Origin: Clostridiales bacterium
Lineage (GTDB): Bacteria > Bacillota > Dehalobacteriia > UBA7702
Length of the DNA stretch: 64,000 bases
Reading direction: 5' to 3'
Assembly: GCA_036644995.1 (NCBI GenBank)
Contig: JAVXOZ010000005.1
Coordinates: 28,067 to 92,066 of the forward strand
The notes beneath the pieces are model-generated. The model had not been told where the DNA came from. It was given only the letters and a program-made list of their open reading frames with translations, and did not search any database. This document shows positions 5,279 through 58,747 of this stretch, piece after piece (the first letter of the stretch is position 1; each line of letters starts with the position of its first letter). Both the position numbers and the translations under genes were made by a program.

Positions 5279-5541
5279 GAAACTACCTTAAAAGCACCTT
5301 GTAAACCACTTCAGTGCAAACTTAAAATTACCTTAATCCAACCTTGTAAATCACGTCTGTGCAAACAACTACCTTAATCGCACCTTGTAAATCACTTTGT
5401 GCCAACTTAAACTACCTTAATAGCACCTTATAAATCACTTTGTGCCAACTAAAACTACCTTAATAGCACCTTATAAATCACTTTGTGCCAACTAAAACTA
5501 CCTTAGTAGCACCTTGTAAATCACCTTTGTGCCAACTTAAA
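5279..5541. repeat. degenerate tandem array, six units of about 43 nt
   Basis: Unit CTACCTTAATAGCACCTTATAAATCACTTTGTGCCAACTAAAA. The units at 5412-5454 and 5455-5497 are identical. Confidence 0.9.
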
Positions 5542-11519: not shown

Positions 11520-11592
11520 CTTTTACTCCTTATTTACATTATATAGCATAAATACAATTTTTCAAATCCGTAAAAGTGGGTTTAAAATATAA

Positions 11593-11618
11593 AACCAAGG
11601 CTTTTTAAAGCCTTGGTT
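11593..11618 (-). terminator. intrinsic terminator closing structured element copy A
   Basis: 10-bp stem AACCAAGGCT/AGCCTTGGTT, followed by TTTTATATTTT on the minus strand. Confidence 0.75.
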
Positions 11619-11619
11619 A

Positions 11620-11756
11620 GAAGATGTCAGGTTGTTAAGAAAGCCTTAGATTCGGTAAAAACCCCTGAATAGCGACTGTGCAGTGTACATAGATGTACAT
11701 AAGCAGTGGGTGGAAAGTGATTTTGCCGAATATCAAACTTTATCTACAGCCTAACT
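11620..11756 (-). repeat. rod-like structured intergenic element, copy A
   Basis: About 87% identical over ~134 nt to 41775..41906 by hand alignment. Long imperfect terminal inverted repeats, central TGTACA hairpin, no conserved ORF. Confidence 0.8.
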
Positions 11757-11820
11757 GTTATTTCTATAAAATACAGAAAGCACATAATTTAACCACGTTA
11801 AAATGGTTGGATAATTTAGA

Positions 11821-11963
11821 CACGGAAATTTATCCACGGGGTTATAGCCACGGAGTTATCGCCACGGAAATTTAGCCACGGGGTTATAGCCACGGAGTTT
11901 TATCCACGGAGTTTTAGTCACGAGGTTATCGCCACGGGGTTTTATCCACGGGGTTTTAGTCAC
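11821..11963. repeat. degenerate tandem array, about 11 units of 13-14 nt
   Basis: Unit CCACGGRRTTWTMG repeated head to tail, directly 3' of the scfB stop codon. Confidence 0.9.
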
Positions 11964-11968
11964 ATATC

Positions 11969-13339
11969 TTACTCACTTTCAGCCACTTGCACCATAATGG
12001 CACATTCCATACGCTTGCGAAACAGCTCACAGCCATATTCATAAATACCGCTTATGCTCCCTGTGGCATGGTAGGCATTGGCAGGGCAGCCACCGGAACA
12101 ATATAGCCTTGCCCAGCAATCCCCGCACTCCTTACGGGCATATACATTGCACATTTTAAATTCATCACGCAGCTTTGTATTGGTTACCCCATCCCAAATA
12201 TTACCCAAGCTGTACTTGGGGTCATCTACAAATTGATGGCAGGGAAAAAGCTCACCCCAAGGTGTAACCGCCATGTATTCCGTGCCGGAACCACACCCGG
12301 AAATCCGTTTATAAATACAGGGGCCTTGGGTTAAATCTATCATATAATGGTAAAAAGTGAAGCCTTCACCTTTTTTATTGCGTTTTATCATCTCTTTGGC
12401 TAAAATTTCATATTGATTAAAAAGCTCGGGCAAATCCTCAGCTGTTAAAGCATAGGGGTCTTTGGGGTCACAAACCACAGGCTCCATGCTTAATTCCTTA
12501 AAGCCCAAATCCGCCATGTGAAAAATATCATTGGTAAAATCCACATTATTGTGGGTAAAAGTGCCACGCACATAGTAATCCTTACCTTTACGGCGGCGTA
12601 CCAGTTCCTGAAATTTGGGCACAATAGTATCGTAGCTGCCCTTACCTGCAATATTTTTACGCAAATGGTCGTGAACAGATTTTCTGCCATCTAAACTTAA
12701 AACCACATTATGCATTTCTTTATTGGCAAAATCTATTACATCATCATCAATATTCACACCATTGGTGGTGAGGGTAAAGCGGAATTTTTTATCATATTTT
12801 TCTTCTTGATTTCTGCCATAATGCACTAAATCCTTTACCACTTGCCAATTCATCAAAGGTTCGCCGCCGAAAAAATCCACCTCTAAATTGGTGCGTTTTC
12901 CCGAATGCGCAATGAGAAAATCCAAAGCCTGCTTTCCCACATCCAAGGACATAATGCTGCGTTCCCCTTTATATTTGCCTTGACTGGCAAAGCAATATTC
13001 ACAATTTAAATTGCAAGTATGGGCAACATGTAAACAAAGAGCCTTAACCACTGTGCTTCTGTTTTTAAAATCAAAGGCTTTATCTTCATAGGTATCCCCC
13101 ACAAAAAGCTTGCCCTGGTTTTTTAATTCCGCTATATCATCCAAGCATTCCCCAATTTCAGCGGCGGTAATATCGGGATTATCTTGGTATTTATCTAAAA
13201 TTTGGGCAGTTATTTCTTGGGGGGATGTGGTTTGGTATTTAGCAATAATATCGTAAGCCACTTCATCCACAACGTGAACTGCACCGCTGTTAATATCCAA
13301 AACTATATTGTAGCCATTTAATTTATATTGATGAATCAT
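11969..13339 (-). CDS. scfB: radical SAM/SPASM thioether-forming SCIFF peptide maturase
   Basis: 456 aa with CNLNCEYC radical SAM cluster and a C-terminal SPASM Cys pattern. The SCIFF precursor gene lies immediately upstream. Confidence 0.85.
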   Translation of the reverse strand: MIHQYKLNGYNIVLDINSGAVHVVDEVAYDIIAKYQTTSPQEITAQILDKYQDNPDITAAEIGECLDDIAELKNQGKLFVGDTYEDKAFDFKNRSTVVKALCLHVAHTCNLNCEYCFASQGKYKGERSIMSLDVGKQALDFLIAHSGKRTNLEVDFFGGEPLMNWQVVKDLVHYGRNQEEKYDKKFRFTLTTNGVNIDDDVIDFANKEMHNVVLSLDGRKSVHDHLRKNIAGKGSYDTIVPKFQELVRRRKGKDYYVRGTFTHNNVDFTNDIFHMADLGFKELSMEPVVCDPKDPYALTAEDLPELFNQYEILAKEMIKRNKKGEGFTFYHYMIDLTQGPCIYKRISGCGSGTEYMAVTPWGELFPCHQFVDDPKYSLGNIWDGVTNTKLRDEFKMCNVYARKECGDCWARLYCSGGCPANAYHATGSISGIYEYGCELFRKRMECAIMVQVAESE

Positions 13340-13360: not shown

Positions 13361-13424
13361 GGGTTTAGGTGGGATTTTATTGGGTTTAGGTTGGATTTTG
13401 TTTGGTTTAAATCAGATTTTGTTT
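13361..13424. repeat. three tandem units of about 21 nt between scfA and scfB
   Basis: GGGTTTAGGTGGGATTTTATT, GGGTTTAGGTTGGATTTTGTTT and GGTTTAAATCAGATTTTGTTT. Confidence 0.8.
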
Positions 13425-13475
13425 AACTGTGATAAATTTTAGATTTTTGGGGATTTCTTGGTATTTTCCATGAAA

Positions 13476-13514
13476 ATTGCCGCTTGCCCACACTTTGGCG
13501 GAACAGGCGGCAAT
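13476..13514 (-). terminator. terminator-like attenuator hairpin just after the SCIFF stop
   Basis: 8-bp stem ATTGCCGC/GCGGCAAT followed by TTTTC on the minus strand, about 27 nt after the scfA stop. Confidence 0.55.
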
Positions 13515-13540
13515 ATTTTAGCAAAATATTCTGCTCTTTA

Positions 13541-13684
13541 TTATTTGGAGCTTTCACATTTTTGGTTGGCAACGCCGCAAGAAGTTTTGCAAGCTGATTG
13601 GCAAGAGGTTTGGCATTCGCCACAGCCGCCGTTTTCAACGCTTTTTGCTAAATCACGAGTATCAAGAGTTTTAATTCTTTTCAT
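13541..13684 (-). CDS. scfA: six-cysteine SCIFF ribosomal peptide precursor (47 aa)
   Basis: Hand translation gives MKRIKTLDTRDLAKSVENGGCGECQTSCQSACKTSCGVANQKCESSK. This is the classic SCIFF GGCGECQTSCQSACKTSC core. It is too short for the ORF track. Confidence 0.9.
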   Translation of the reverse strand: MKRIKTLDTRDLAKSVENGGCGECQTSCQSACKTSCGVANQKCESSK

Positions 13685-19330: not shown

Positions 19331-19934
19331 TACATTAATTTACCTAATCAAAAATTTACCTAATCAAAACTGCCTAACAATATATCTAAATAAATCCACC
19401 CTAAAAAATATGTACGAGGAAATTTATCGTAGAAAACTTAACTTAGAAAATCTACCTAAACAAATCTACTTTAGAAAACCTATCTCAGCAAATCTACCTT
19501 AAACAAACTTAACTCAGAAAACCTACCTATCAAATCTACCTCAGAAAACTTACCTTTAGAAAATCTACCTCAGTAAATCTAACTCAACAAATCTATCTCA
19601 ACAAACCTACCTCGGAAAATCTACCTTAGAAAACTTACCTTAACAAACCTACCTCAGAAAATCTATCTCAGAAAATCTACCTAAGTAAATCTACCTCAGT
19701 AAATCTACCTATCAAATCTACCTAACAAATCTACCTAACAAACCTACCTCGGAAAACCTACCTTAGAAAACCTACCTTAGAAAACCTACCTTAGCAAACC
19801 TGCATAAACAAACCTATCTTAAATAAATCTAACTAAAAAAACTTACCTAAGAAATCTTACCTTAGCAAACTTAACTCAGCAAATCTATTTAAACAAATCT
19901 ACATTAATCTACCTTAATTAAATCCACCTAAGCC
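19331..19934. repeat. about 600-bp degenerate tandem array, about 43 units of 13-14 nt
   Basis: Unit AAAYCTACCTYAGN repeated head to tail, filling the whole gap between the M23 stop and the radical SAM start. Confidence 0.95.
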
Positions 19935-28075: not shown

Positions 28076-28181
28076 ACAGAGCCAAATTTTCAAGATTTTT
28101 CCACGATATTTGCAATTTTGAATACGCATATGCGGAATTTAAGTAAAACTTAACTGAAGTAAATCTTTAAAATAATAGTTT

Positions 28182-28313
28182 TTATCCAAAGAAGTTGTGG
28201 TTTTTGTCCAAGAAAATTATGATTCTCATTCAACAAAGTTACGGCTATTATCCAAGGAAGTTGTAGCTATTATCCAAGGAAGTTGTGGTTCTTCTCCAAG
28301 GAAGTTTTGGTAA
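28182..28313. repeat. degenerate tandem array, six 22-nt units
   Basis: Unit TTATCCAAGGAAGTTGTGGTTC, directly 3' of the maf stop. Confidence 0.85.
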
Positions 28314-28375
28314 TTTTAAAAGTTAGAAATTAAACAATTAAAAACAATAAAACTTTTCTGCAAAACAATTGGTTT

Positions 28376-37158: not shown

Positions 37159-37263
37159 ATTTATTAAAATAATTTAAAATAACACAATTAAAAATTTCCC
37201 AAAAACACCATTGTTAAATATAAAAAACAACCGCAATTTTATTACCGAAGATAAACAGCAAAT

Positions 37264-37452
37264 AGATTACAAACTTACCTAACACAGGAGATTACAAACT
37301 TACCTAACGCAGGAGATTACAAACTTATCTAACGCAACAGATTGAAAACTTACCTAACACAGGAGATTGCAAATTATCGAACGCAACAGATTGAAAACTT
37401 AGCCAACGCAGTATTTTACTAAATTAGCCAAGGCAGGAAATTACTAAGGAGC
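37264..37452. repeat. degenerate tandem array, about seven 25-nt units
   Basis: Unit AGATTACAAACTTACCTAACRCAGG, decaying toward the right end. Confidence 0.85.
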
Positions 37453-37600
37453 AAAATCTATTTTAACCTACCGAAACCAAAACAAACTTTATCTAAAAAA
37501 GGCATATATATCTGGAATATCTGGAATATCTGGATATATATACATTAAAATTAAAATATATACCAATCTAAGCCAAATGCAACACCCTACCAAAAAGATA

Positions 37601-37630
37601 AAAAACACCGCCAAAAAAGCGGTGTTTTTT
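37601..37630. terminator. bidirectional intrinsic terminator
   Basis: AAAAACACCGC-CAAAAAA-GCGGTGTTTTT with T-runs on both strands. Confidence 0.8.
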
Positions 37631-37749
37631 ACTATCAACACATATTTATTTATACTAAATATTATAAATTACATGATATTAACCGAGGATTTTTGTTTAC
37701 ATTGGCTTGATAATCATTTTAGAAACAGCCTTAATAATAAACCAAATTA

Positions 37750-39650: not shown

Positions 39651-41480
39651 TTACGATTTTTTCGGTAAAAAATAATTTATAATAAAAGCAACACCATCAT
39701 TAACACCATCGCCATAAATCATTTCTCTGGCAACTACCGGGTTATCCGTTACTATGCTATCCACCCCTAAATCAATTATTTTCCTCATATTTTCTTCATT
39801 ATTTACTGTCCAAGCGTAAAGGTCTTTACCTTCTGCGTGAACATTTTTCACCATTTCCGGTGTGATAAATGAAGATTCAATGCTAAAGCCATCGGCAAAT
39901 TCCATCTGTGAAATGCCACCGTATGCCACAGCCATAAGGAAAACCGTTTTAATATTCGGGTCTATTTTTTTAACATTTTCCAAGGCAGGGGCATTAAGGG
40001 AAGAAACCACGCAATCCCTTTTAAAATTATTATCATTGATAATATCTATAACCATTTGTTCATAATTAGTTTCGTTGCCATTGGGTTTTAACTCAATATT
40101 CAGCTTAATTTTGCCTTTACACGCTTTTATTACTTCATCCAATGTAGATATACGCACATAATCAAATTTTGGGTCAAACCAACTGCCCACATCTATTTCT
40201 TGGAGTTCATCATAGTTAATATCCCAGATATTGATATCCTTACCGGAAATTCGCTTTAAATTATCATCGTGCATCACAACTATAATCCCATCTTTGGTTT
40301 GATGAACATCTAATTCCGCATAATCTGCCAAATTTTTAATGGCACTTTTAAAGGCAGGCATGGTATTTTCCGGAGCCTTAACAGAATCCCCTCTATGGGC
40401 AGTGATTTCAGGATGATTTAATAATTGCACATTTGAGCTTATATGGTTTAAAGTGGCAATGCCAATATAAGCACCGTTAATAGCAACGGCAACCACCACC
40501 AAGATAATGGCAAATTTTGTTTTTAAAGGTTTTTTACCGGGAGGTACAGGCACATTATAAGGTGCAATATTTTCACCCATTTGTTCTTTGCGATAATAAA
40601 AAACCGAGCTGATATAGGCAAAGACAATGGGCACAGAAAATAAACCCCCCACCGCTGTTATAATGGCTAATACTATACTTGCCACTGTTAAAGCGGCAGA
40701 ATATGCCACATGAGCACTGCAAAAAATCTTAACACCGAGAATTATTAATCCCAAGCAAATTACCGAGAATAAAAACAGCAATAAAGCAATGGCAATATTC
40801 CAGATAAAAAGACCCAAAACCGAGGATATATAGTGACCTTTTATCAATTTAACGCTATCTTTACGTGCTTGGCTAAAATTATCCGATTCCAAAGTGAAAT
40901 AATGTATGCTAAAAATCCAGCGTATGGCAAGGAGTATAAGCCCAAACATTAATAAAGTAAATAAACTCAGCAATAAAGCATTGGCAACAATAAAATCCAT
41001 AATAAATTCAGGGATAGCAAGCCCTGAAATAAACCCAGAAACCAGTGTAAAATTAGTTATGGGAATAATAAACACCACAAAAACAATTAAAAGCCAATTT
41101 TTCTTTTGAAAAAATTTCTTGGCGGAATAATAGCCAATGCGAAACATTTCTCTGGCGGATATTTTTATATTGTAAAAAGAACCGTGAAAACATTGTATTA
41201 TCGCCGTCATTTCTATAAGGGTAAAAAAGGTTATTCCTATAAAAATAACAATTATAAATAATATAGTAATAGGGTCGGTTAAAAAATCCGGTAAATTTTT
41301 ATTGGATAAATAGCTTAATCCCGATATTTTTAAGGAAAGATTAAATAGCCCTACCAAAAGCGGAGTAAATATGGTAATTGTAAATAATTTATACAATAAT
41401 TCAAAAATCAACAGTGCTTTAAAATTTGTTTTTAACAAGCCCAAAGCATACTTAAACTCCTGCAAATTCCCCACCCCCAA
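39651..41480 (-). CDS. glycerophosphodiester phosphodiesterase with an N-terminal polytopic membrane domain
   Basis: The C-terminal GDPD domain has HRGDSVKAPENT and ELDVHQTKDG. The N-terminal ~330 aa are multi-TM. Confidence 0.8.
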   Translation of the reverse strand: MGVGNLQEFKYALGLLKTNFKALLIFELLYKLFTITIFTPLLVGLFNLSLKISGLSYLSNKNLPDFLTDPITILFIIVIFIGITFFTLIEMTAIIQCFHGSFYNIKISAREMFRIGYYSAKKFFQKKNWLLIVFVVFIIPITNFTLVSGFISGLAIPEFIMDFIVANALLLSLFTLLMFGLILLAIRWIFSIHYFTLESDNFSQARKDSVKLIKGHYISSVLGLFIWNIAIALLLFLFSVICLGLIILGVKIFCSAHVAYSAALTVASIVLAIITAVGGLFSVPIVFAYISSVFYYRKEQMGENIAPYNVPVPPGKKPLKTKFAIILVVVAVAINGAYIGIATLNHISSNVQLLNHPEITAHRGDSVKAPENTMPAFKSAIKNLADYAELDVHQTKDGIIVVMHDDNLKRISGKDINIWDINYDELQEIDVGSWFDPKFDYVRISTLDEVIKACKGKIKLNIELKPNGNETNYEQMVIDIINDNNFKRDCVVSSLNAPALENVKKIDPNIKTVFLMAVAYGGISQMEFADGFSIESSFITPEMVKNVHAEGKDLYAWTVNNEENMRKIIDLGVDSIVTDNPVVAREMIYGDGVNDGVAFIINYFLPKKS

Positions 41481-41725
41481 ATATAAAAATACATCAATAG
41501 TATAACATTTTGTCCACTTAAAATAAACAGTATTTTAAAAAAGTTTACATAATTTTACATAATTTTTTTATTTAATACTATTTATGACTTTTATTTCTAT
41601 TAATTTTAATTTGCCATTATTTTAACTTTAATTTATATTTAAGGTAATAGTTAAGGATATAGACTAAATATTTTTGGGACAAGGAGTTAAAATATCCGAA
41701 AAACTGCAATTTTAGGGCAAAAAAA

Positions 41726-41743
41726 ACAGCGGTATAAACCGCT
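41726..41743 (-). terminator. intrinsic terminator closing structured element copy B
   Basis: CAGCGGT-loop-ACCGCTG followed by T8 on the minus strand. Confidence 0.75.
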
Positions 41744-41774
41744 GGCAGATTGTTAAAAAACATAGTTTTTTGGC

Positions 41775-41906
41775 AAGATGTTAGGCTGTTAAGAAAGACT
41801 TAGATTCGGTAAAACTCCCTGAACAGCGGCTGTGCAGTGTACCTAAATGTACATAAGCAGTCGATGAGAAGGGATTTTGCCGAATATCAGACTTTATCAA
41901 CAGCCT
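41775..41906 (-). repeat. rod-like structured intergenic element, copy B
   Basis: About 87% identical to copy A. AGGCTGTT/AACAGCCT closing helix. Flanked by near-identical hairpins at 41726-41743 and 41908-41926. Confidence 0.8.
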
Positions 41907-41934
41907 AAACAGCGGTATAAGCCGCCGAGGTGTT

Positions 41935-42092
41935 TGGGGTTTTGGCTGTGAGATGGGGTTTAGCTGTGAGATGGGTTTTATCTACAAAATGGGGGTTTAG
42001 CTGCGAGATGGGGTTTAGCTGTGAGATGGGTTTTATCTACAAAATGGGGTTTGGTTGCAAGATACCATTTATCTACAAATAATGGGTTTTGG
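41935..42092. repeat. degenerate tandem array, about nine 18-19-nt units
   Basis: The units GGGGTTTAGCTGTGAGATG and GGTTTTATCTACAAAATG alternate, giving a ~56-nt higher-order period. Confidence 0.85.
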
Positions 42093-42245
42093 ATAAAGGT
42101 TGAAAACATCTAAACACCCAAAGTAAGAACTTCTTCTGTATTTAGATATAAAAGTTCCAAGTTTGGTTTTAGCTGTTCTCAGCCTTAATCCACAGCCGCA
42201 AAAGCTTTTACGCAATTAGTAAAAGCTTTTTTCATTTTATATTTA

Positions 42246-43472
42246 TTAATTTAATTTTTTCATTTTGCGGTTATTGCCAAATTCTGCCACAGCGGTAAAT
42301 AACACATCCGATGATGAATTTAAAGCGGTTTCGCAGGAATCCTGCACCACGCCTACAATAAAGCCAACACCCACCACCTGCATGGCAATGTCGTTAGGGA
42401 TGCCAAACAAGCTGCAAGCCAAAGGTATTAAAAGCAGAGAACCACCTGCAACACCCGAAGCACCACAAGCACTTATGGCGGAAAGCACACTTAAAATAAT
42501 AGCCGTAGGCATATCTACACTAATGCCCAAAGTGTAGGTTGCCGCCAAGGTAAGGGTGGCAATGGTAACTGCGGCACCTGCCATATTAATGGTAGCACCC
42601 AAGGGTATGGATATGGCATAAGTATCTTTATCCAAGCCCAATTCCTCACAAAGGCTCATATTAACAGGGATATTTGCCGCTGAACTCCGAGTAAAAAACG
42701 CTGTAATACCACTTTGCTTTAAACATTTAAAAACCAAAGGATAAGGATTTTTACGGATATTAATAAATGCGATAAGTGGATTTACCACCAAAGCAATAAA
42801 TGCCATAATCCCAACCAACAATATAATCAATCTGCCATAGGTAAAAAGAATTTTTAAACCACTGGTGGAAATGGCGGTAAAAACCAAACCCATAATACCC
42901 AAAGGTGCAAATTTAATAACCCACCGCACAATTTGAGAAATACCCTCTGCAAAATCGGAGATTACATTTTTTGTGCCATCTGAGGCGAATTTTAAAGCCA
43001 AGCCCAGCAAAATTGCCCAAGCTAAAATTCCAATATAATTGGCATCACCAATGGCACTTATGGGATTATCAACTATTTTAAAAACCAGAGATTGCAAAAC
43101 TTCCAATATACCTTCGGGTGGAGCAACATCCTGAACCCCGGCGGTTAAAACCAATTTTACTTTAAAAATGTTGCTGACAACCACTGCCACTAATCCTGCC
43201 ATAAAAGTGCTGATGGCATAAAGACAAATAATGGATTTCATATTGGTTTTTTGCCCCTGTTTATGTTTGGATATTGCAGCCATAACCAAAAACAAAACCA
43301 AAATTGGGGCTACTGCTTTTAATGCACCCACAAAAAGCTCCCCAAAGATGCCAAGACCCGATAATTGTTTGGGGAAAAATATAGCCAAAACAATACCCAC
43401 TGCCAAACCAATAATAATTTGTTTTACCAAACTTATTTTGTTCCATTTACCCAATAGTTTTTTAAAAAACAT
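42246..43472 (-). CDS. sstT: serine/threonine transporter SstT (DAACS family)
   Basis: 408 aa with SstT-like sequence throughout. Confidence 0.85.
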
Positions 43473-43724
43473 TTATATTTCCTTCCAATACTTATACCGC
43501 ATTTTTTATGTGGCAAAACAAGTATTTTTTTATTATTATCTTCTTTAATTTAATATATCCCAAAATTTTAATTAAACAAACGCACCCTACTTATAATAAC
43601 ACAAAATATCAAATAAGCAATAAAATATTTATGGAAATTTTGGTGCTGTGCCTAAATTTAATTATATTGAGGCAAATTGTAAAAAAATGTAATTTAGCTT
43701 AAAATGATATATTAAAAAAAGCTT

Positions 43725-43818
43725 AAACCCTTATAATCTAAATTAAACCACTGTTAAACCCTTATAATCTAAATTAAACCACTGTTAAACCCTTTATAAT
43801 CTAAATTAAACCACTGTT
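43725..43818. repeat. three near-perfect 31-nt direct repeats upstream of sstT
   Basis: AAACCCTTATAATCTAAATTAAACCACTGTT three times. The third copy has a 1-nt insertion. Confidence 0.9.
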
Positions 43819-43867
43819 TGATGTAATGAAATATACATAAATTAGGAAATTTATACCCAAAATAAAA

Positions 43868-43900
43868 AACTGCACTTCACCTTTAAGGTGAAATACAGTT
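43868..43900 (-). terminator. intrinsic terminator of the CODH operon
   Basis: A 13-bp stem whose two mismatches become G-U pairs only on the minus strand, followed by TTTTTTATTTT. Confidence 0.7.
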
Positions 43901-43920
43901 TCTTTTTTTATTTAAGTTTT

Positions 43921-44186
43921 AATGTGAGATTGGGTTAAGTTGGTATTTTCATTGGGTTTTAACTTAGGATTGGGTTAAATTGGTATTACCATTGGGTTTT
44001 AATGTAGGATTGAGGTAAGTTGGCATTTTCATTGGGTTTTAACTTAGGATTTGGGTAAGTTGGTATTACCATTGGGTTTTAATGTAGGATTGAGGTAAGT
44101 TGGTATTTTCATTGGGTTTTAACTTAGGATTGGGTTAAGTTTGTATCTTCATTGGGTTTTAACTTGAAAATTTAGGCTTGGGTTTT
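43921..44186. repeat. degenerate tandem array, about 6.5 units of about 41 nt
   Basis: Unit AACTTAGGATTGGGTTAAGTTGGTATTTTCATTGGGTTTT with alternating subtypes (81-nt higher order). Lies between the oxidoreductase stop and the terminator. Confidence 0.9.
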
Positions 44187-48073: not shown

Positions 48074-48298
48074 GGGGGTTATGCCCAAGGAACTATGTTA
48101 AAAGAATCTATGTTAAATGAGGTCTATGCCCAAGGGGGTTATGCCCAAGGGGTTCGTGCCCAAGAGGGCTATGTTAAAGAAGTGGGGCTATGTTAAATTG
48201 GTTTGTGCCCAAGTGGAGCTATGTTAAATTAGTACTATCTTAAAGGGGGTCTACGCTAAATTGCTCTACGCTAAAGCCGAAGGATGTCTACACTAAAT
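48074..48298. repeat. degenerate tandem array, about 14 units of 14-17 nt
   Basis: The units GGTTATGCCCAAGG, GCTATGTTAAA and GTCTACGCTAAA drift along the array. Confidence 0.85.
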
Positions 48299-48489
48299 GC
48301 TGTGGTGCGGAATAAAAACGTAATTTTTACCACGGTATAGACCATATATAACAAAAAACCTACTTTCCGATGGGGGTCTGTGCCCAAGTTAAATGGGGTC
48401 TACACTAAATGCTGTGGTGCGGAATAAAAACGTAATTTTTACCACGGTATAGACCATTTTCATATATAACAAAAAACCTACTTTCCGAT
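48286..48489. repeat. two direct repeats of about 86-92 nt separated by 26 nt
   Basis: 48286-48371 and 48398-48489 are nearly identical apart from a 4-nt insertion. Each contains a bulged hairpin GTGGT...AAAAA-CGTAA-TTTTT-ACCAC. Confidence 0.9.
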
Positions 48490-48553: not shown

Positions 48554-48630
48554 TGGTGGAGACAGCTGGATTCGAACCGGCGACCCCCTGCATGTGAGGC
48601 AGGTACTCTAACCTGCTGAGCTATGCCTCC
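48554..48630 (-). tRNA. tRNA-Val (anticodon CAC), CCA encoded
   Basis: Hand-folded cloverleaf: acceptor GGAGGCA/TGTCTCC, anticodon stem CCTGC/GCAGG with loop CTCACAT, T-arm GCCGG-TTCGAAT-CCGGC. 77 nt. Confidence 0.9.
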
Positions 48631-50051: not shown

Positions 50052-50157
50052 TCGGATATATCCCGATATACTCGATGTATCCCGTTGTATCCGATATACT
50101 CGTTGTATCCCGTTGTATCCCGTTGTATCCGATATACTCGATGTATCCGATATAATA
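50052..50157. repeat. degenerate tandem array (units GTATCCCGTT and GTATCCGATATACTCGWT)
   Basis: About 8 units of 10-18 nt between the regulator stop and its terminator. Confidence 0.85.
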
Positions 50158-50208
50158 AGAATCGAAAATTTGGTGAGTTTCACATTATCACATTTTCTCA
50201 ACAATCTT

Positions 50209-50242
50209 GCATATCTTGATTTTTCAAGATATGCTTTTTTTT
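50209..50242 (+). terminator. intrinsic terminator
   Basis: Perfect 11-bp stem GCATATCTTGA/TCAAGATATGC, 4-nt loop, then T8. Confidence 0.85.
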
Positions 50243-54096: not shown

Positions 54097-54161
54097 TAAT
54101 ACATTCCTTTTTTAATTTACAAACCGCCAAATATTGGCAAGTGTGATTTTTCATAGCAAAA

Positions 54162-54182
54162 AACGGAGCTTAACGCTCCGTT
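54162..54182 (-). terminator. intrinsic terminator closing structured element copy C
   Basis: AACGGAGC-loop-GCTCCGTT followed by T6 on the minus strand. Confidence 0.75.
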
Positions 54183-54333
54183 GCAGATTGTGAACAAAAT
54201 GAAATTTTGCCTGCACAATTAGGACTTTAAAAAGACTTAACCCGACGAAAATAGTAAGCAGAATTTCGGGGTAAATACACCAAAAAATCGGCAATTAATA
54301 TTTTCGGCGAGCATCAGACTTTTTAATGCCTTA
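54183..54333 (-). repeat. rod-like structured intergenic element, divergent copy C
   Basis: Shares the AAAGACTTA...CG.CGAAAA / TTTTCGGCG...ATCAGACTTT helix, with the same internal mismatches as copies A and B. Bracketed by duplicated hairpins at 54162-54182 and 54334-54354. Confidence 0.65.
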
Positions 54334-54373
54334 AACGGAGCATAAAGCTCCGTTAATCGGTGCATCAAATGAA

Positions 54374-54577
54374 TTATTTTAGACCGTATTTCTTTTTGAA
54401 CTTATCTACACGGCCGCCTTCTTCTACTAAGAAGCGTCTGCTGCCTGTATAGAAGGGATGGCATTGAGAACAAACTTCAACTCTGATATCCTTTTTGGTG
54501 GATTTAGACATAAATTTGTTGCCACATGCACAAGTGATTTCTACTTCATCATAAGCAGGATGAATACCTTTTTTCAT
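54374..54577 (-). CDS. rpmE: 50S ribosomal protein L31 (type A, Zn-ribbon)
   Basis: Start MKKGIHP at ATG 54577, 8 nt after AGAGG. The CxC...CxxC Zn motif is present. Confidence 0.92.
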
Positions 54578-55925: not shown

Positions 55926-56440
55926 TTTTCAATTCCACTTTCGTGATATTTTTCTCAATTTCTCATTTTTGTAATTTATCATATAGTTTAATTATTCAAT
56001 AAAAATATACAAAATCCTTTAAACTTAGGTTAAATTACCTTAAGATAGGCAAAAATTGTGGTTAATCTGTGGTTTTATCACTTTTACTCTTAAATAAGAC
56101 TTGAATATTGTTGCAAAATATATTACTATATAATATGAATGCAGAATTTACCTTTTGCAAAAATCTGAAAATTTATGCCTTTTTAAATACAGGATTTATT
56201 AAAAATTCAAGCCGTGGGTATTTACTTTTAAAAACTTAAAATAAGGAAACATTTAGGCACTTTAAAATTAGGCTGAAAAAATTATACCTTAACAATTTAC
56301 CCACCATGTTTTTCAAGACTACACTTTTTTAAGCATATTAATATAGATTTTACCGTAAAAACCATTTATATATTCAATTTACCGTAAACCAAAAAAACAA
56401 CTTGGTTTACTGCATTAATTATTATGGGGGATTTTTTATA

Positions 56441-57838
56441 ATGAGGGATTTTTTTAAGAATAAAAAAAAGAATATCGCACCTCAACCTCAAGAACAACTA
56501 TATGCTGTTTTTATTCAAAGTAACGACAGAATATATCATTTGGATAAAGAATGTGCAGGTGTGGGCTGTATTACCATCAATAACAAAATAGCCCGTTGCC
56601 AAGCCAGAAAACCATGCCAACTGTGCGCAAAAAACCGTCCTGCGTACAATGCCCCAATAATTTCCCCAGAGGAAAATACCAAGGCATATACACACACACC
56701 CAAACCACCCTTAACACCACCACCTGCCATAGCCAATAAAGAAAATACAGCCACGGCGGATAGCAATATAAATACGCCATTATCACCTTTAAATGCCCAA
56801 GCTGACCTTGGTGTAAACCCTACCCTTGAGCCAAGCCCAGAAGCTGAAAATTTAGATATGCCGCCCTTAGCTCAAGAAGCCGCAGCCAAAAATCCCCAAA
56901 TGGAACTTAATGATATTATCGCCCCAAAAGAGCAAGCCATACCATCGGTAATTTTAAATAATGAAATAAATCCAGATAATGGCATTGCATCGGATAATAT
57001 TACCATTGCAGAAAATAACAGCGAAAATAGCAATATCGAGGAAAAAAACAGTCTTATCCAAGATATAAAAAAAGAAGATATAGAAAAACTTTTTCCTTTA
57101 CCCACAGAAAATATTGAAGATGAAAAACCTCTATCTTGGGAATCTCTTAAAGAAATGCCCCTTGCTTCCAGTACCGAAGAAGTTGCAGAAAAAATTGTAA
57201 GTGATGAGGGTGAAATTTCAGGGAATATCTCTGAAAACATTGAAGATGAAAAACCCCTATCTTGGGAATCACTTAAGGTAATGCCCCTTAACCCCAACAC
57301 CGAAGAAGTTGCGGAAAAAATTGTAAGTGACGAGGGTGAAATTTCAGCCAATATCTCTGAAAATATTGAAGATGAAAAACCATCGGTATCGCCACTGGTT
57401 TTTAACAGCACCCAAGCCACGGCAATGGCTGAGGAAAATATAACTAACACAGAAACACCAATGCCAAACCCGATAATGGCACCGATTTCCTCATCTATAT
57501 CCACAGATGAAAATGACTTAAACCCCAAAAATCAAGGCACAAATATACCGATATTAACCAGAGTACCCCTTACACCTTTGCTGGAAACACAAGAACCCTT
57601 GACTGAACATCACCATACAGAACCAAAAAAACAAAAAAAAACCGGTAAAACCCAAAACTTAGTATTTGGTAAATTAGACAAGGTTTCCATTGTTGGCATC
57701 GCCATATTTACACTGACTATTTTGGTTATAATTGCCAATTTTGCCACAGGTGGCATAGTGCCCAAAGATAAAGTAGATGCCTTGAGCTGCAATACAGAAA
57801 TATCTTGTAATATTGATAACTATGATTTAAAATTTTAA
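56441..57838 (+). CDS. hypothetical protein: N-terminal Cys motif, ~340-aa acidic disordered region with 42-aa repeats, C-terminal TM
   Basis: ATG 56441 follows GGGGGA. YHLDKEC..C...C..C motif. 126-nt tandem repeats at 57107-57382. TM segment VSIVGIAIFTLTILVIIANFA. Confidence 0.7.
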   Translation: MRDFFKNKKKNIAPQPQEQLYAVFIQSNDRIYHLDKECAGVGCITINNKIARCQARKPCQLCAKNRPAYNAPIISPEENTKAYTHTPKPPLTPPPAIANKENTATADSNINTPLSPLNAQADLGVNPTLEPSPEAENLDMPPLAQEAAAKNPQMELNDIIAPKEQAIPSVILNNEINPDNGIASDNITIAENNSENSNIEEKNSLIQDIKKEDIEKLFPLPTENIEDEKPLSWESLKEMPLASSTEEVAEKIVSDEGEISGNISENIEDEKPLSWESLKVMPLNPNTEEVAEKIVSDEGEISANISENIEDEKPSVSPLVFNSTQATAMAEENITNTETPMPNPIMAPISSSISTDENDLNPKNQGTNIPILTRVPLTPLLETQEPLTEHHHTEPKKQKKTGKTQNLVFGKLDKVSIVGIAIFTLTILVIIANFATGGIVPKDKVDALSCNTEISCNIDNYDLKF

Positions 57839-58480: not shown

Positions 58481-58526
58481 ATAGCCTTGGGTAAATTTAC
58501 TGATTTATAAATTTACCCAAGGCTAT
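58481..58526. other. 19-bp perfect inverted repeat (hairpin or palindrome)
   Basis: ATAGCCTTGGGTAAATTTA, 8 nt, TAAATTTACCCAAGGCTAT. No clear U-tract on either strand. Confidence 0.85.
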
Positions 58527-58707: not shown

Positions 58708-58747
58708 AAAAAACCCCAAATCCTGTTAAAAAAGGATTTGGGGTTTT
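58708..58747 (-). terminator. intrinsic terminator of the glpX operon
   Basis: 12-bp stem AACCCCAAATCC/GGATTTGGGGTT followed by TTTTTTAAATT on the minus strand. Confidence 0.85.

Follow-up and report, generated by a model that had tools for sequence, protein, structure and literature searches.

In work by Calcutt from 1999, the targets of IS1630, an insertion sequence (IS) of Mycoplasma fermentans in the IS30 family, were reportedly the rho-independent terminators of neighbouring genes. The target duplications of IS1630 are variable at 19–26 bp (PMC2853133), with 16–26 bp given elsewhere (PMC3317919). IS1272/TnSha1 of staphylococci (Firmicutes; IS1182 family) targets hairpins that are mostly transcriptional terminators, with no primary-sequence specificity, and it deletes or replaces part of the hairpin without making a target duplication (PMC4923244, PMC5678879). 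Bacterial transposable elements of the miniature inverted-repeat type (MITEs) and small palindromic repeats (Correia, ERIC, RUP, BOX, SPRITE, bcr1) are described, in the parts of two reviews drawn on here, as non-coding, intergenic, multi-copy sequences of 100–200 nt that form a long stem-loop and are co-transcribed with neighbouring genes; those parts mention no element that duplicates a whole terminator stem-loop (PMC10969869, PMC3184786). Here, we describe a small repeated element in a 64,000-nt stretch of DNA from a Clostridiales bacterium (GCA_036644995.1, contig JAVXOZ010000005.1, positions 28,067–92,066; hereafter the window), which has 38% G+C and in which every annotated gene is a housekeeping gene. 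We put the probability at roughly 0.7 that this is a non-coding, non-autonomous, MITE-like mobile element whose integration, at the base of a terminator stem-loop, leaves this stem-loop duplicated in full (18–26 nt). The basis for this is a family of copies, repeats that bracket the copies at two loci on single contigs, an empty site, and differences between close strains.

The preliminary description of this DNA was right that such an arrangement is not typical of classical IS or MITE transposition, but IS1630 offers a precedent and would be the closest one. Like IS1630, the element appears to insert at inverted repeats of variable sequence and to duplicate them, and the duplications are in the same size range (18–21 nt plus up to three T, and about 26 nt). 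However, IS1630 is an autonomous IS of 1.4 kb with a transposase gene and 27-bp terminal inverted repeats, whereas the element is non-coding and 151–165 nt long, with weak terminal repeats and a long internal hairpin. The hosts differ as well, a mollicute in one case and a Clostridia bacterium in the other. Unlike in an IS1272-type insertion, the target hairpins are intact and duplicated. With the MITEs and palindromic repeats, the element shares its size, its non-coding and intergenic nature, its multiple copies and its long stem-loop, but those repeats have duplications of 2–10 bp (often TA) or none, whereas here a whole stem-loop is duplicated.

All three copies in the window (A, B and C; Table 1) are detected by nhmmer. 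The core of copy B, downstream of sstT, is 88% identical to copy A over 134 nt without indels, in agreement with the approximately 87% of the preliminary description. It is an imperfect palindrome (72% identity with its own reverse complement) that folds far more strongly than shuffled sequences (z = -7.7 and -10.7). Two 20-mers flank copy B, AACAGCGGTATAAACCGCTG at 41725–41744 and AACAGCGGTATAAGCCGCCG at 41908–41927. This bracketing had been recognised before, with coordinates that were off by one and a match of 17/20 positions; 18/20 positions are in fact equal. Shuffled sequences predict 0.02 matches to a degenerate pattern of the two 20-mers, and the window has two. The sstT-proximal hairpin (41927 to 41910) is followed on the minus strand by TTTAGG and the distal hairpin (41744 to 41727) by T8, just as the first had been said to lack a U-tract and the second to be followed by U8. 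The distal hairpin is the sole terminator-like site called on the minus strand of the copy B region. The upstream direct repeat (DR1) represents the original terminator hairpin, which has been separated from its T-tract, and the repeat on the downstream side (DR2) is the working intrinsic terminator after the insertion. A G+C-containing stem with a T-tract on the gene strand, as expected of an intrinsic terminator, is found in DR2 of copy B (T8), in DR2 of copy C, in a hairpin 3′ of copy A (hairpin Y) and in the hairpin of the empty site described below (T9), but neither in DR1 of copy B nor in DR1 of copy C, and the element comes after both of the latter. As a perfect A+T-rich hairpin (42200–42230; 12 bp, T-runs on both sides, called terminator-like on the plus strand) stands right after the sstT stop codon, sstT may already terminate partly ahead of the tandem array and the element.

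Copy C, which was not among the copies of the preliminary description (A and B), was overlooked by BLAST and was found through its duplicated flanking hairpins. A scan of the window for direct repeats that themselves form hairpins returned only two pairs outside tandem and coding repeats, namely the pair around copy B and one at 54162–54182 and 54334–54354, after rpmE. The stems of the latter pair are identical and two loop bases differ, and the pattern AACGGAGC-loop-GCTCCGTT has two matches in the window, against 0 expected. On the minus strand, the locus reads AACGGAGCTTTATGCTCCGTT / TAAGGCATTAAAAAGTCTGATGCTCGCCGAAAAT ... TTAAGTCTTTTTAAAGTCCTAATTGTGCAGGCAAAATTTCATTTTGTTCACAATCTGC / AACGGAGCGTTAAGCTCCGTT TTTT, with the element between the strokes. 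Copy C is 71% self-complementary over 104 nt (core self-complementarity is 71–72% in B and C), and its right end is identical to that of copy B at 45/62 nt, up to the shared final bases ACAATCTGC. As the tail and this terminus are common to copies B and C, the 30 nt at 41745–41774, which had been taken for a spacer between the core and the distal hairpin, are part of the element. The complete element is thus 151–165 nt long: its core, one long and imperfect hairpin, is followed by a second, short A/T hairpin and by the terminus; it begins with TTAGGC... (also written TTAGGCTGTTGATAAAG...) and ends with ...ACAATCTGC. The motif AAAGTCTGATNNTCG has three matches in the window, all on the minus strand and one per copy, against 0.04 expected. 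A possible reading of the copy B tail as a degenerate copy of a core arm was rejected as not significant (531/2000 shuffles). At 50150–50234, the sequence ...CATTTTCTCAACAATCTT before a strong terminator (GCATATCTTGATTTTTCAAGATATGC and T9) resembles the right terminus of the element; a possible fourth, truncated copy before this terminator (50209–50234) was rejected, as the resemblance is not significant (p about 0.1–0.2).

The junctions of the two complete copies follow one plan. At the left, the hairpin is followed by 0–2 T and TA(A)GGC; at the right, ...ACAATCTGC (last bases CTGC) is followed directly by the hairpin, and in both B and C the element ends exactly at the feet of the stem-loops. 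The hairpin at B is unrelated in sequence to the one at C, so neither can be a passenger of the element; both are target duplications, 18–21 nt long (18 nt plus up to three T at B, 21 nt plus one T at C), where up to three T are not assignable. As copy C is bracketed by a hairpin different from that of copy B, the duplication is locus-specific and recurrent, as target duplication predicts.

Table 1. Positions in the window of the element copies, their flanking hairpins and the adjacent genes.
Feature	Position	Strand	Remarks
sstT	42246-43472	minus	Pfam SDF match; the name SstT is taken from the sources; 3′ region holds copy B
A+T-rich hairpin	42230-42200		Given in minus-strand order; right 3′ of the sstT stop codon
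Tandem array, 18-nt period	42080-41935		Between the A+T-rich hairpin of sstT and DR1 of copy B
DR1 of copy B	41910-41927	minus	Stem-loop CGGCGGCTTATACCGCTG, then TT(T) only; equals the single hairpin of the empty allele in L042
Copy B, full length	41745-41909	minus	165 nt; nhmmer E=8e-49; absent from L042
Copy B, long-hairpin core	41775-41908	minus	134 nt; compared with 11621-11754 (copy A)
Copy B, tail	41745-41774		30 nt; small A/T hairpin; terminus ...ACAATCTGC
DR2 of copy B	41719-41744	minus	Stem-loop CAGCGGTTTATACCGCTG (41727-41744) and T8 (41719-41726)
Membrane GDPD gene	39651-41465	minus	On the far side of the copy B intergenic region from sstT
rpmE (ribosomal protein L31)	54374-54577	minus	Pfam Ribosomal_L31, E=4e-31; terminator holds copy C
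DR1 of copy C	54334-54354	minus	Stem-loop AACGGAGCTTTATGCTCCGTT; 19 nt past the rpmE stop codon; then TAAGG, no T-tract
Copy C	54183-54333	minus	151 nt, diverged; nhmmer E=1e-34; right terminus ACAATCTGC; two-hairpin layout as in copy B
DR2 of copy C	54158-54182	minus	Stem-loop AACGGAGCGTTAAGCTCCGTT (54162-54182), then TTTT
SCIFF peptide maturase (radical SAM)	11969-13339	minus	3′ region holds copy A
Copy A, core only	11621-11754	minus	134 nt; no tail, no upstream repeat
Hairpin Y	11593-11618	minus	AACCAAGGCTTTAAAAAGCCTTGGTT and TTATATTTT; directly 3′ of copy A; terminator-like

The site after sstT is empty in a sister strain, L042 (GCA_036648935.1), whose flanks are 98.5–98.9% identical to the window. 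It reads ...CCCCATCTTGTTTACAACACCT CGGCGGCTTATACCGCTG TTTTTTTTT GCCCTAAAATTGCAG..., that is, ...ACACCT, one hairpin, T9 and GCCC, without the element. The filled allele is found in the window and in L001/L033, L034 and L045 (GCA_036652095.1); in all, at least four assemblies other than that of the window carry it. The single hairpin of the empty allele is the same as DR1 of the filled allele. Compared with CGGCGGC in the empty allele and in DR1, DR2 has CGGCGGT in L045 (CGGCGGTTTATACCGCTG, an intermediate form) and CAGCGGT in the window. This graded series suggests two hairpins that were the same at first, one of which, the active terminator, later acquired changes that perfect its stem. The preliminary description had proposed an insertion at the sstT terminator with duplication of the hairpin, and had pointed to sstT 3′ regions with a single hairpin as the place to look for the empty site; the finding of that site in L042 and the second bracketed copy, C, support the proposal. 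All data are from metagenome assemblies, with near-identical DNA in several metagenome-assembled genomes (MAGs) at NCBI and in Logan assemblies of one project, and copies of the element are known from roughly 100 kb of DNA of this species. In several assemblies, contigs break off within the element, which a dispersed repeat would lead one to expect. Anaerovoracaceae such as Aminipila and Anaerovorax supply the nearest SstT homologues (up to 79% identity). The nearest relatives of the SCIFF maturase are only about 80% identical, so sampling of the lineage is sparse. The orthologous sstT and SCIFF-maturase loci of the nearest relatives (up to 80% amino-acid identity) contained no element and no duplicated hairpins; synteny is not kept there, so these loci are uninformative on the empty site.

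Copy A looks like a degenerate, decaying copy. Its hairpin is weakened, at -31 to -41 kcal/mol compared with -48 to -57 kcal/mol for copy B. The same intergenic region in GCA_036648935.1 (contig L039) reads ...TATAGAAATAACAAGTAA AACCAAGGCTTTAAAAAGTCTTGGTT TAGGCTGTTGATAAAGTCTG..., with Y directly 5′ of an element. Identity of the left half of this element is 95% with B and 87% with A, and the contig stops at the apical palindrome. Another contig of this assembly (L066) has the element, CT, Y and a HAD gene in this order, with a foreign left flank (L066:4100–4190) that lies 23 nt past the stop codon of an HNH_repeat gene. As Y is found on each side of an element in this assembly, the simplest reconstruction is Y-element-Y, a third duplicated hairpin of 26–27 nt. 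L058 (GCA_036652275.1) has yet another left flank on the element (L058:1–120), ending in the hairpin AGCAGATTTCTCCCAAGAAAATCTGCT. In both L058 and L066, an unrelated left flank is joined to an element that continues into the right flank of locus A. Either element copies recombined and caused rearrangements, or the contigs are chimeric; further genomic copies are evident in both cases. Upstream of copy A are the gene for the SCIFF six-cysteine peptide (the region at 13423–13640 of the window; L035:336–479) and that for its radical-SAM maturase, a gene pair conserved in Clostridia.

In its general features, the element is like a MITE. It is short (134–165 nt), it contains no transposase open reading frame (ORF; the longest ORFs have 23–49 codons and their frame is not conserved between copies), its copies are dispersed over three loci in the window, it is flanked at B and C by duplications, which at a whole stem-loop are unusually long for a MITE, and an empty site exists. 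A number of points weigh against a mobile element that duplicates terminators. The outermost ends of the element are weak inverted repeats (AGGCTGTT versus AGATTGTT, 6/8 in B and 3/8 in C by eye), and the right end runs about 36 nt past the palindromic core, which is unusual for a MITE of a DDE transposase; the poor inverted repeats and this asymmetric right end speak against simple membership among IS30-derived MITEs. Pfam searches and the gene tables revealed no transposase or integrase gene in the 64-kb window. Only three loci and two foreign flanks have been seen, and pattern scans of GTDB genomes, JGI metagenomes and IMG/VR found no other member, only chance matches. These scans used GATTCGG[Y/T]AAA..TTTGCCGAATA, a 17-mer and later the family motif, where the pattern for the genome and metagenome scans came from copies A and B. 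No repeat brackets copy A in the window, and the left junctions of this copy and of the copy in L066 (copy D) adjoin only weak A+T-rich hairpins, 9–12 nt away. The preliminary description had named copies without flanking hairpin duplications as evidence against its proposal; copy A is such a copy on its upstream side, though it also lacks the 30-nt tail. The Y-element-Y arrangement is joined from two MAG contigs (L039 and L066) and was not seen on one molecule. Finally, the flanking repeats differ at 1–2 of about 21 positions, which is above the roughly 1% divergence between the strains, so the insertions may date back some time, and the empty allele could have arisen later, by deletion between the repeats, instead of being the ancestral state.

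The strongest alternative takes up this last point. The hairpins could have been duplicated first, or the element together with one hairpin could have spread by recombination between hairpins; the element would then have been captured instead of transposed, and the empty allele would be a deletion. The imperfect repeats agree with this, as does the structure of the empty allele, in which the 5′ arm of the upstream repeat is fused to the T-tract, the junction that would result if the DNA between the repeats were deleted. In addition, the intergenic DNA is unstable here, with tandem arrays that change in copy number between strains. However, three unrelated GC-containing stem-loops (those of B, C and Y) directly adjoin the element in one layout, with the element ends equidistant from the stem feet, no duplicated hairpin without the element was found in the window or in any locus examined, and the graded series of DR2 fits repeats that were identical initially and then diverged. 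The variant in the preliminary description, in which the terminator was duplicated before the element was captured, is unlikely because three different terminators would have to be duplicated independently and would then have to capture the same element. We therefore regard capture as distinctly improbable.

Another possibility is that the element is not mobile but is a structured RNA, such as a small RNA or a module of the 3′ untranslated region (UTR), that is encoded on the minus strand in a few paralogous copies and is ended by the U8 terminator, the hairpins being ordinary terminators. The strong fold (z about -6 to -10) and the canonical terminator after every copy on the minus strand would fit this. 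The changes between A and B also avoid paired positions (3/76 paired versus 13/58 unpaired, where all three paired changes keep the pairing), and copy C keeps the two-hairpin layout despite a sequence divergence of roughly 35–40%. Yet the avoidance of paired positions is equally expected if the arms must match for a reason at the DNA level, and copy A is losing base pairs through pair-breaking changes. The preferred folding strand of C is opposite to that of the other copies (the plus strand gives the better fold for A and B, the minus strand for C), for which reason a strand-specific RNA was rejected. A riboswitch or leader was likewise rejected, as the terminator of copy A (Y) precedes the promoter of the next gene, at 11565–11538. 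With Rfam 15 at gathering thresholds, the whole window yielded only a tRNA, and at E up to 10 the region 41480–42250 yielded nothing relevant (the best match, E 0.68, was to an unrelated yeast snoRNA model). Moreover, the element is present or absent between strains that are about 99% identical, its bracketing hairpins are locus-specific, and different element variants and flanks occur at one locus. As mobility is compatible with a functional transcribed 3′ UTR, this alternative stands apart only as a non-mobile RNA gene, and as such we consider it very unlikely.

A similarly small chance is left for a single-strand DNA element of the REPIN/RAYT kind or derived from IS200/IS605 (PATE), moved by a hairpin-recognising HUH transposase of the Y1 type. 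In favour of this, the element forms a single long, imperfect hairpin whose ends are asymmetric and lack convincing terminal inverted repeats, and IS200/IS605 elements are common in Clostridia. All three copies in the window have one orientation, which at 3/3 is not significant. Such systems, however, make no target duplication and insert beside a fixed target of 4–5 nt, whereas the duplications here are 18–26 nt long and the left flanks share only T-richness. Neither a RAYT nor a TnpA gene was found in the window; for REP/REPIN sequences mobilised by RAYT, the long hairpin fits and the duplications do not. An assembly artefact or chance similarity has next to no probability: although contigs often end in the element and L058 and L066 may be chimeric, at least four independent assemblies have one and the same filled allele of B, the empty allele is internal to its contig, where its flanks are unique, and cannot be explained by assembler collapse because the repeats share only 14 contiguous bases, and shuffle controls give about 0 expected matches.

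For a mobile element that duplicates terminators, we infer the following course of events. The target would be chosen by its hairpin or inverted-repeat shape and not by its sequence, at intrinsic terminators downstream of housekeeping genes. A transposase acting in trans may recognise the extruded or palindromic stem-loop and cut each strand at a different, opposite foot of the palindrome; in the repair of the gaps, the stem-loop would then be copied, leaving a duplicate on each side of the element. The upstream hairpin would end up without the T-tract and the downstream hairpin would keep it. Without a T-tract, the upstream copy would terminate poorly, so that the host transcript should continue past it and across the element, as far as the second hairpin, and this read-through transcript would gain a strongly folded 3′ UTR. 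For any particular transposase family behind the element, our confidence is much lower than for the element being mobile. At 37599–37631, 58481–58526 and 58710–58747, the window contains very long perfect hairpins with stems of 13–19 bp, flanked by A- and T-runs, which are likely bidirectional terminators; as no element is present there, they are candidate unoccupied targets.

A bolder and, in our view, unlikely version of this mechanism is an undescribed integration system that reads DNA shape, namely that of the terminator stem-loop, and copies it while inserting a folded module of roughly 160 nt. In that case, the asymmetric ends and weak terminal repeats could point to an enzyme other than an IS30-type DDE transposase, for example a hairpin-guided single-strand integrase or a Cas1-like integrase. 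If such a system existed, core-gene terminators would offer it safe places to land, and every insertion would give rise to a working terminator again and extend the 3′ UTR of the host mRNA.

Some known systems share one part of this behaviour. Group IIC introns recognise intrinsic terminator stem-loops by structure and insert just downstream of them. However, these introns are retroelements with a ribozyme, exceed 600 nt and usually include a reverse-transcriptase gene, and they are not known to make a target duplication, unlike the 165-nt element with its duplications; group II intron models of Rfam had no match here at E up to 10. In CRISPR spacer integration, a staggered attack on the borders of an often palindromic repeat duplicates the whole repeat, and casposons, which use Cas1-type integrases, have duplications of 14–15 bp. 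This may serve as a mechanistic analogy only: there is no CRISPR array or cas gene nearby, and the targets here are unrelated terminators at scattered loci. The element also matches none of the named palindromic repeats, given that it belongs to no Rfam family (these include some repeat-derived RNAs) and that BLAST of copy B against plasmids and phages found no match. A six-frame peptide concatenate of the element, with which we looked for spurious ORF calls in a protein database, had no match either.

The element is thus probably a miniature, non-autonomous counterpart of IS1630 in its behaviour, targeting terminator hairpins and duplicating them. There are reports of very few elements (IS1630) whose insertion is directed by terminator structure and doubles the entire stem-loop, and we found no miniature non-autonomous one among them. 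It would be a natural example of a repeat that spreads through the intergenic DNA of a core genome without harming genes. The downstream hairpin copy would restore termination, and each insertion would rewrite the 3′ UTR of a housekeeping transcript (sstT, rpmE and the SCIFF maturase operon). The element explains assembly breaks at these sites in the lineage and provides markers that distinguish strains. If its transposase is found, the sequence-independent recognition of hairpins would be of mechanistic interest and possibly a tool.

Many intergenic regions of the window contain tandem arrays with locus-specific units of 14–43 nt (5280–5541, 11803–11970, 19375–19911, 28176–28331, 37239–37437, 41935–42080, 43698–43818, 43866–44185 and 50073–50148). 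Their copy number varies strongly between strains that are about 98–99% identical. After the SCIFF maturase, about 12 units in the window compare with 2 in L039; after sstT, L042 has a much shorter array. A link between the element and the arrays was rejected, as the arrays are locus-specific, many of these intergenic regions are without the element, and copy C is without an array. Two other repeats were seen in the window. Just upstream of a tRNA gene (48557–48630, minus strand), direct repeats of 81 nt (48265–48345 and 48377–48457) are 88% identical and 112 nt apart. An ORF of 478 amino acids at 56402–57838, without a Pfam match, contains a tandem duplication of 126 nt (42 amino acids; repeats at 57107–57358) and probably encodes a repeat protein.

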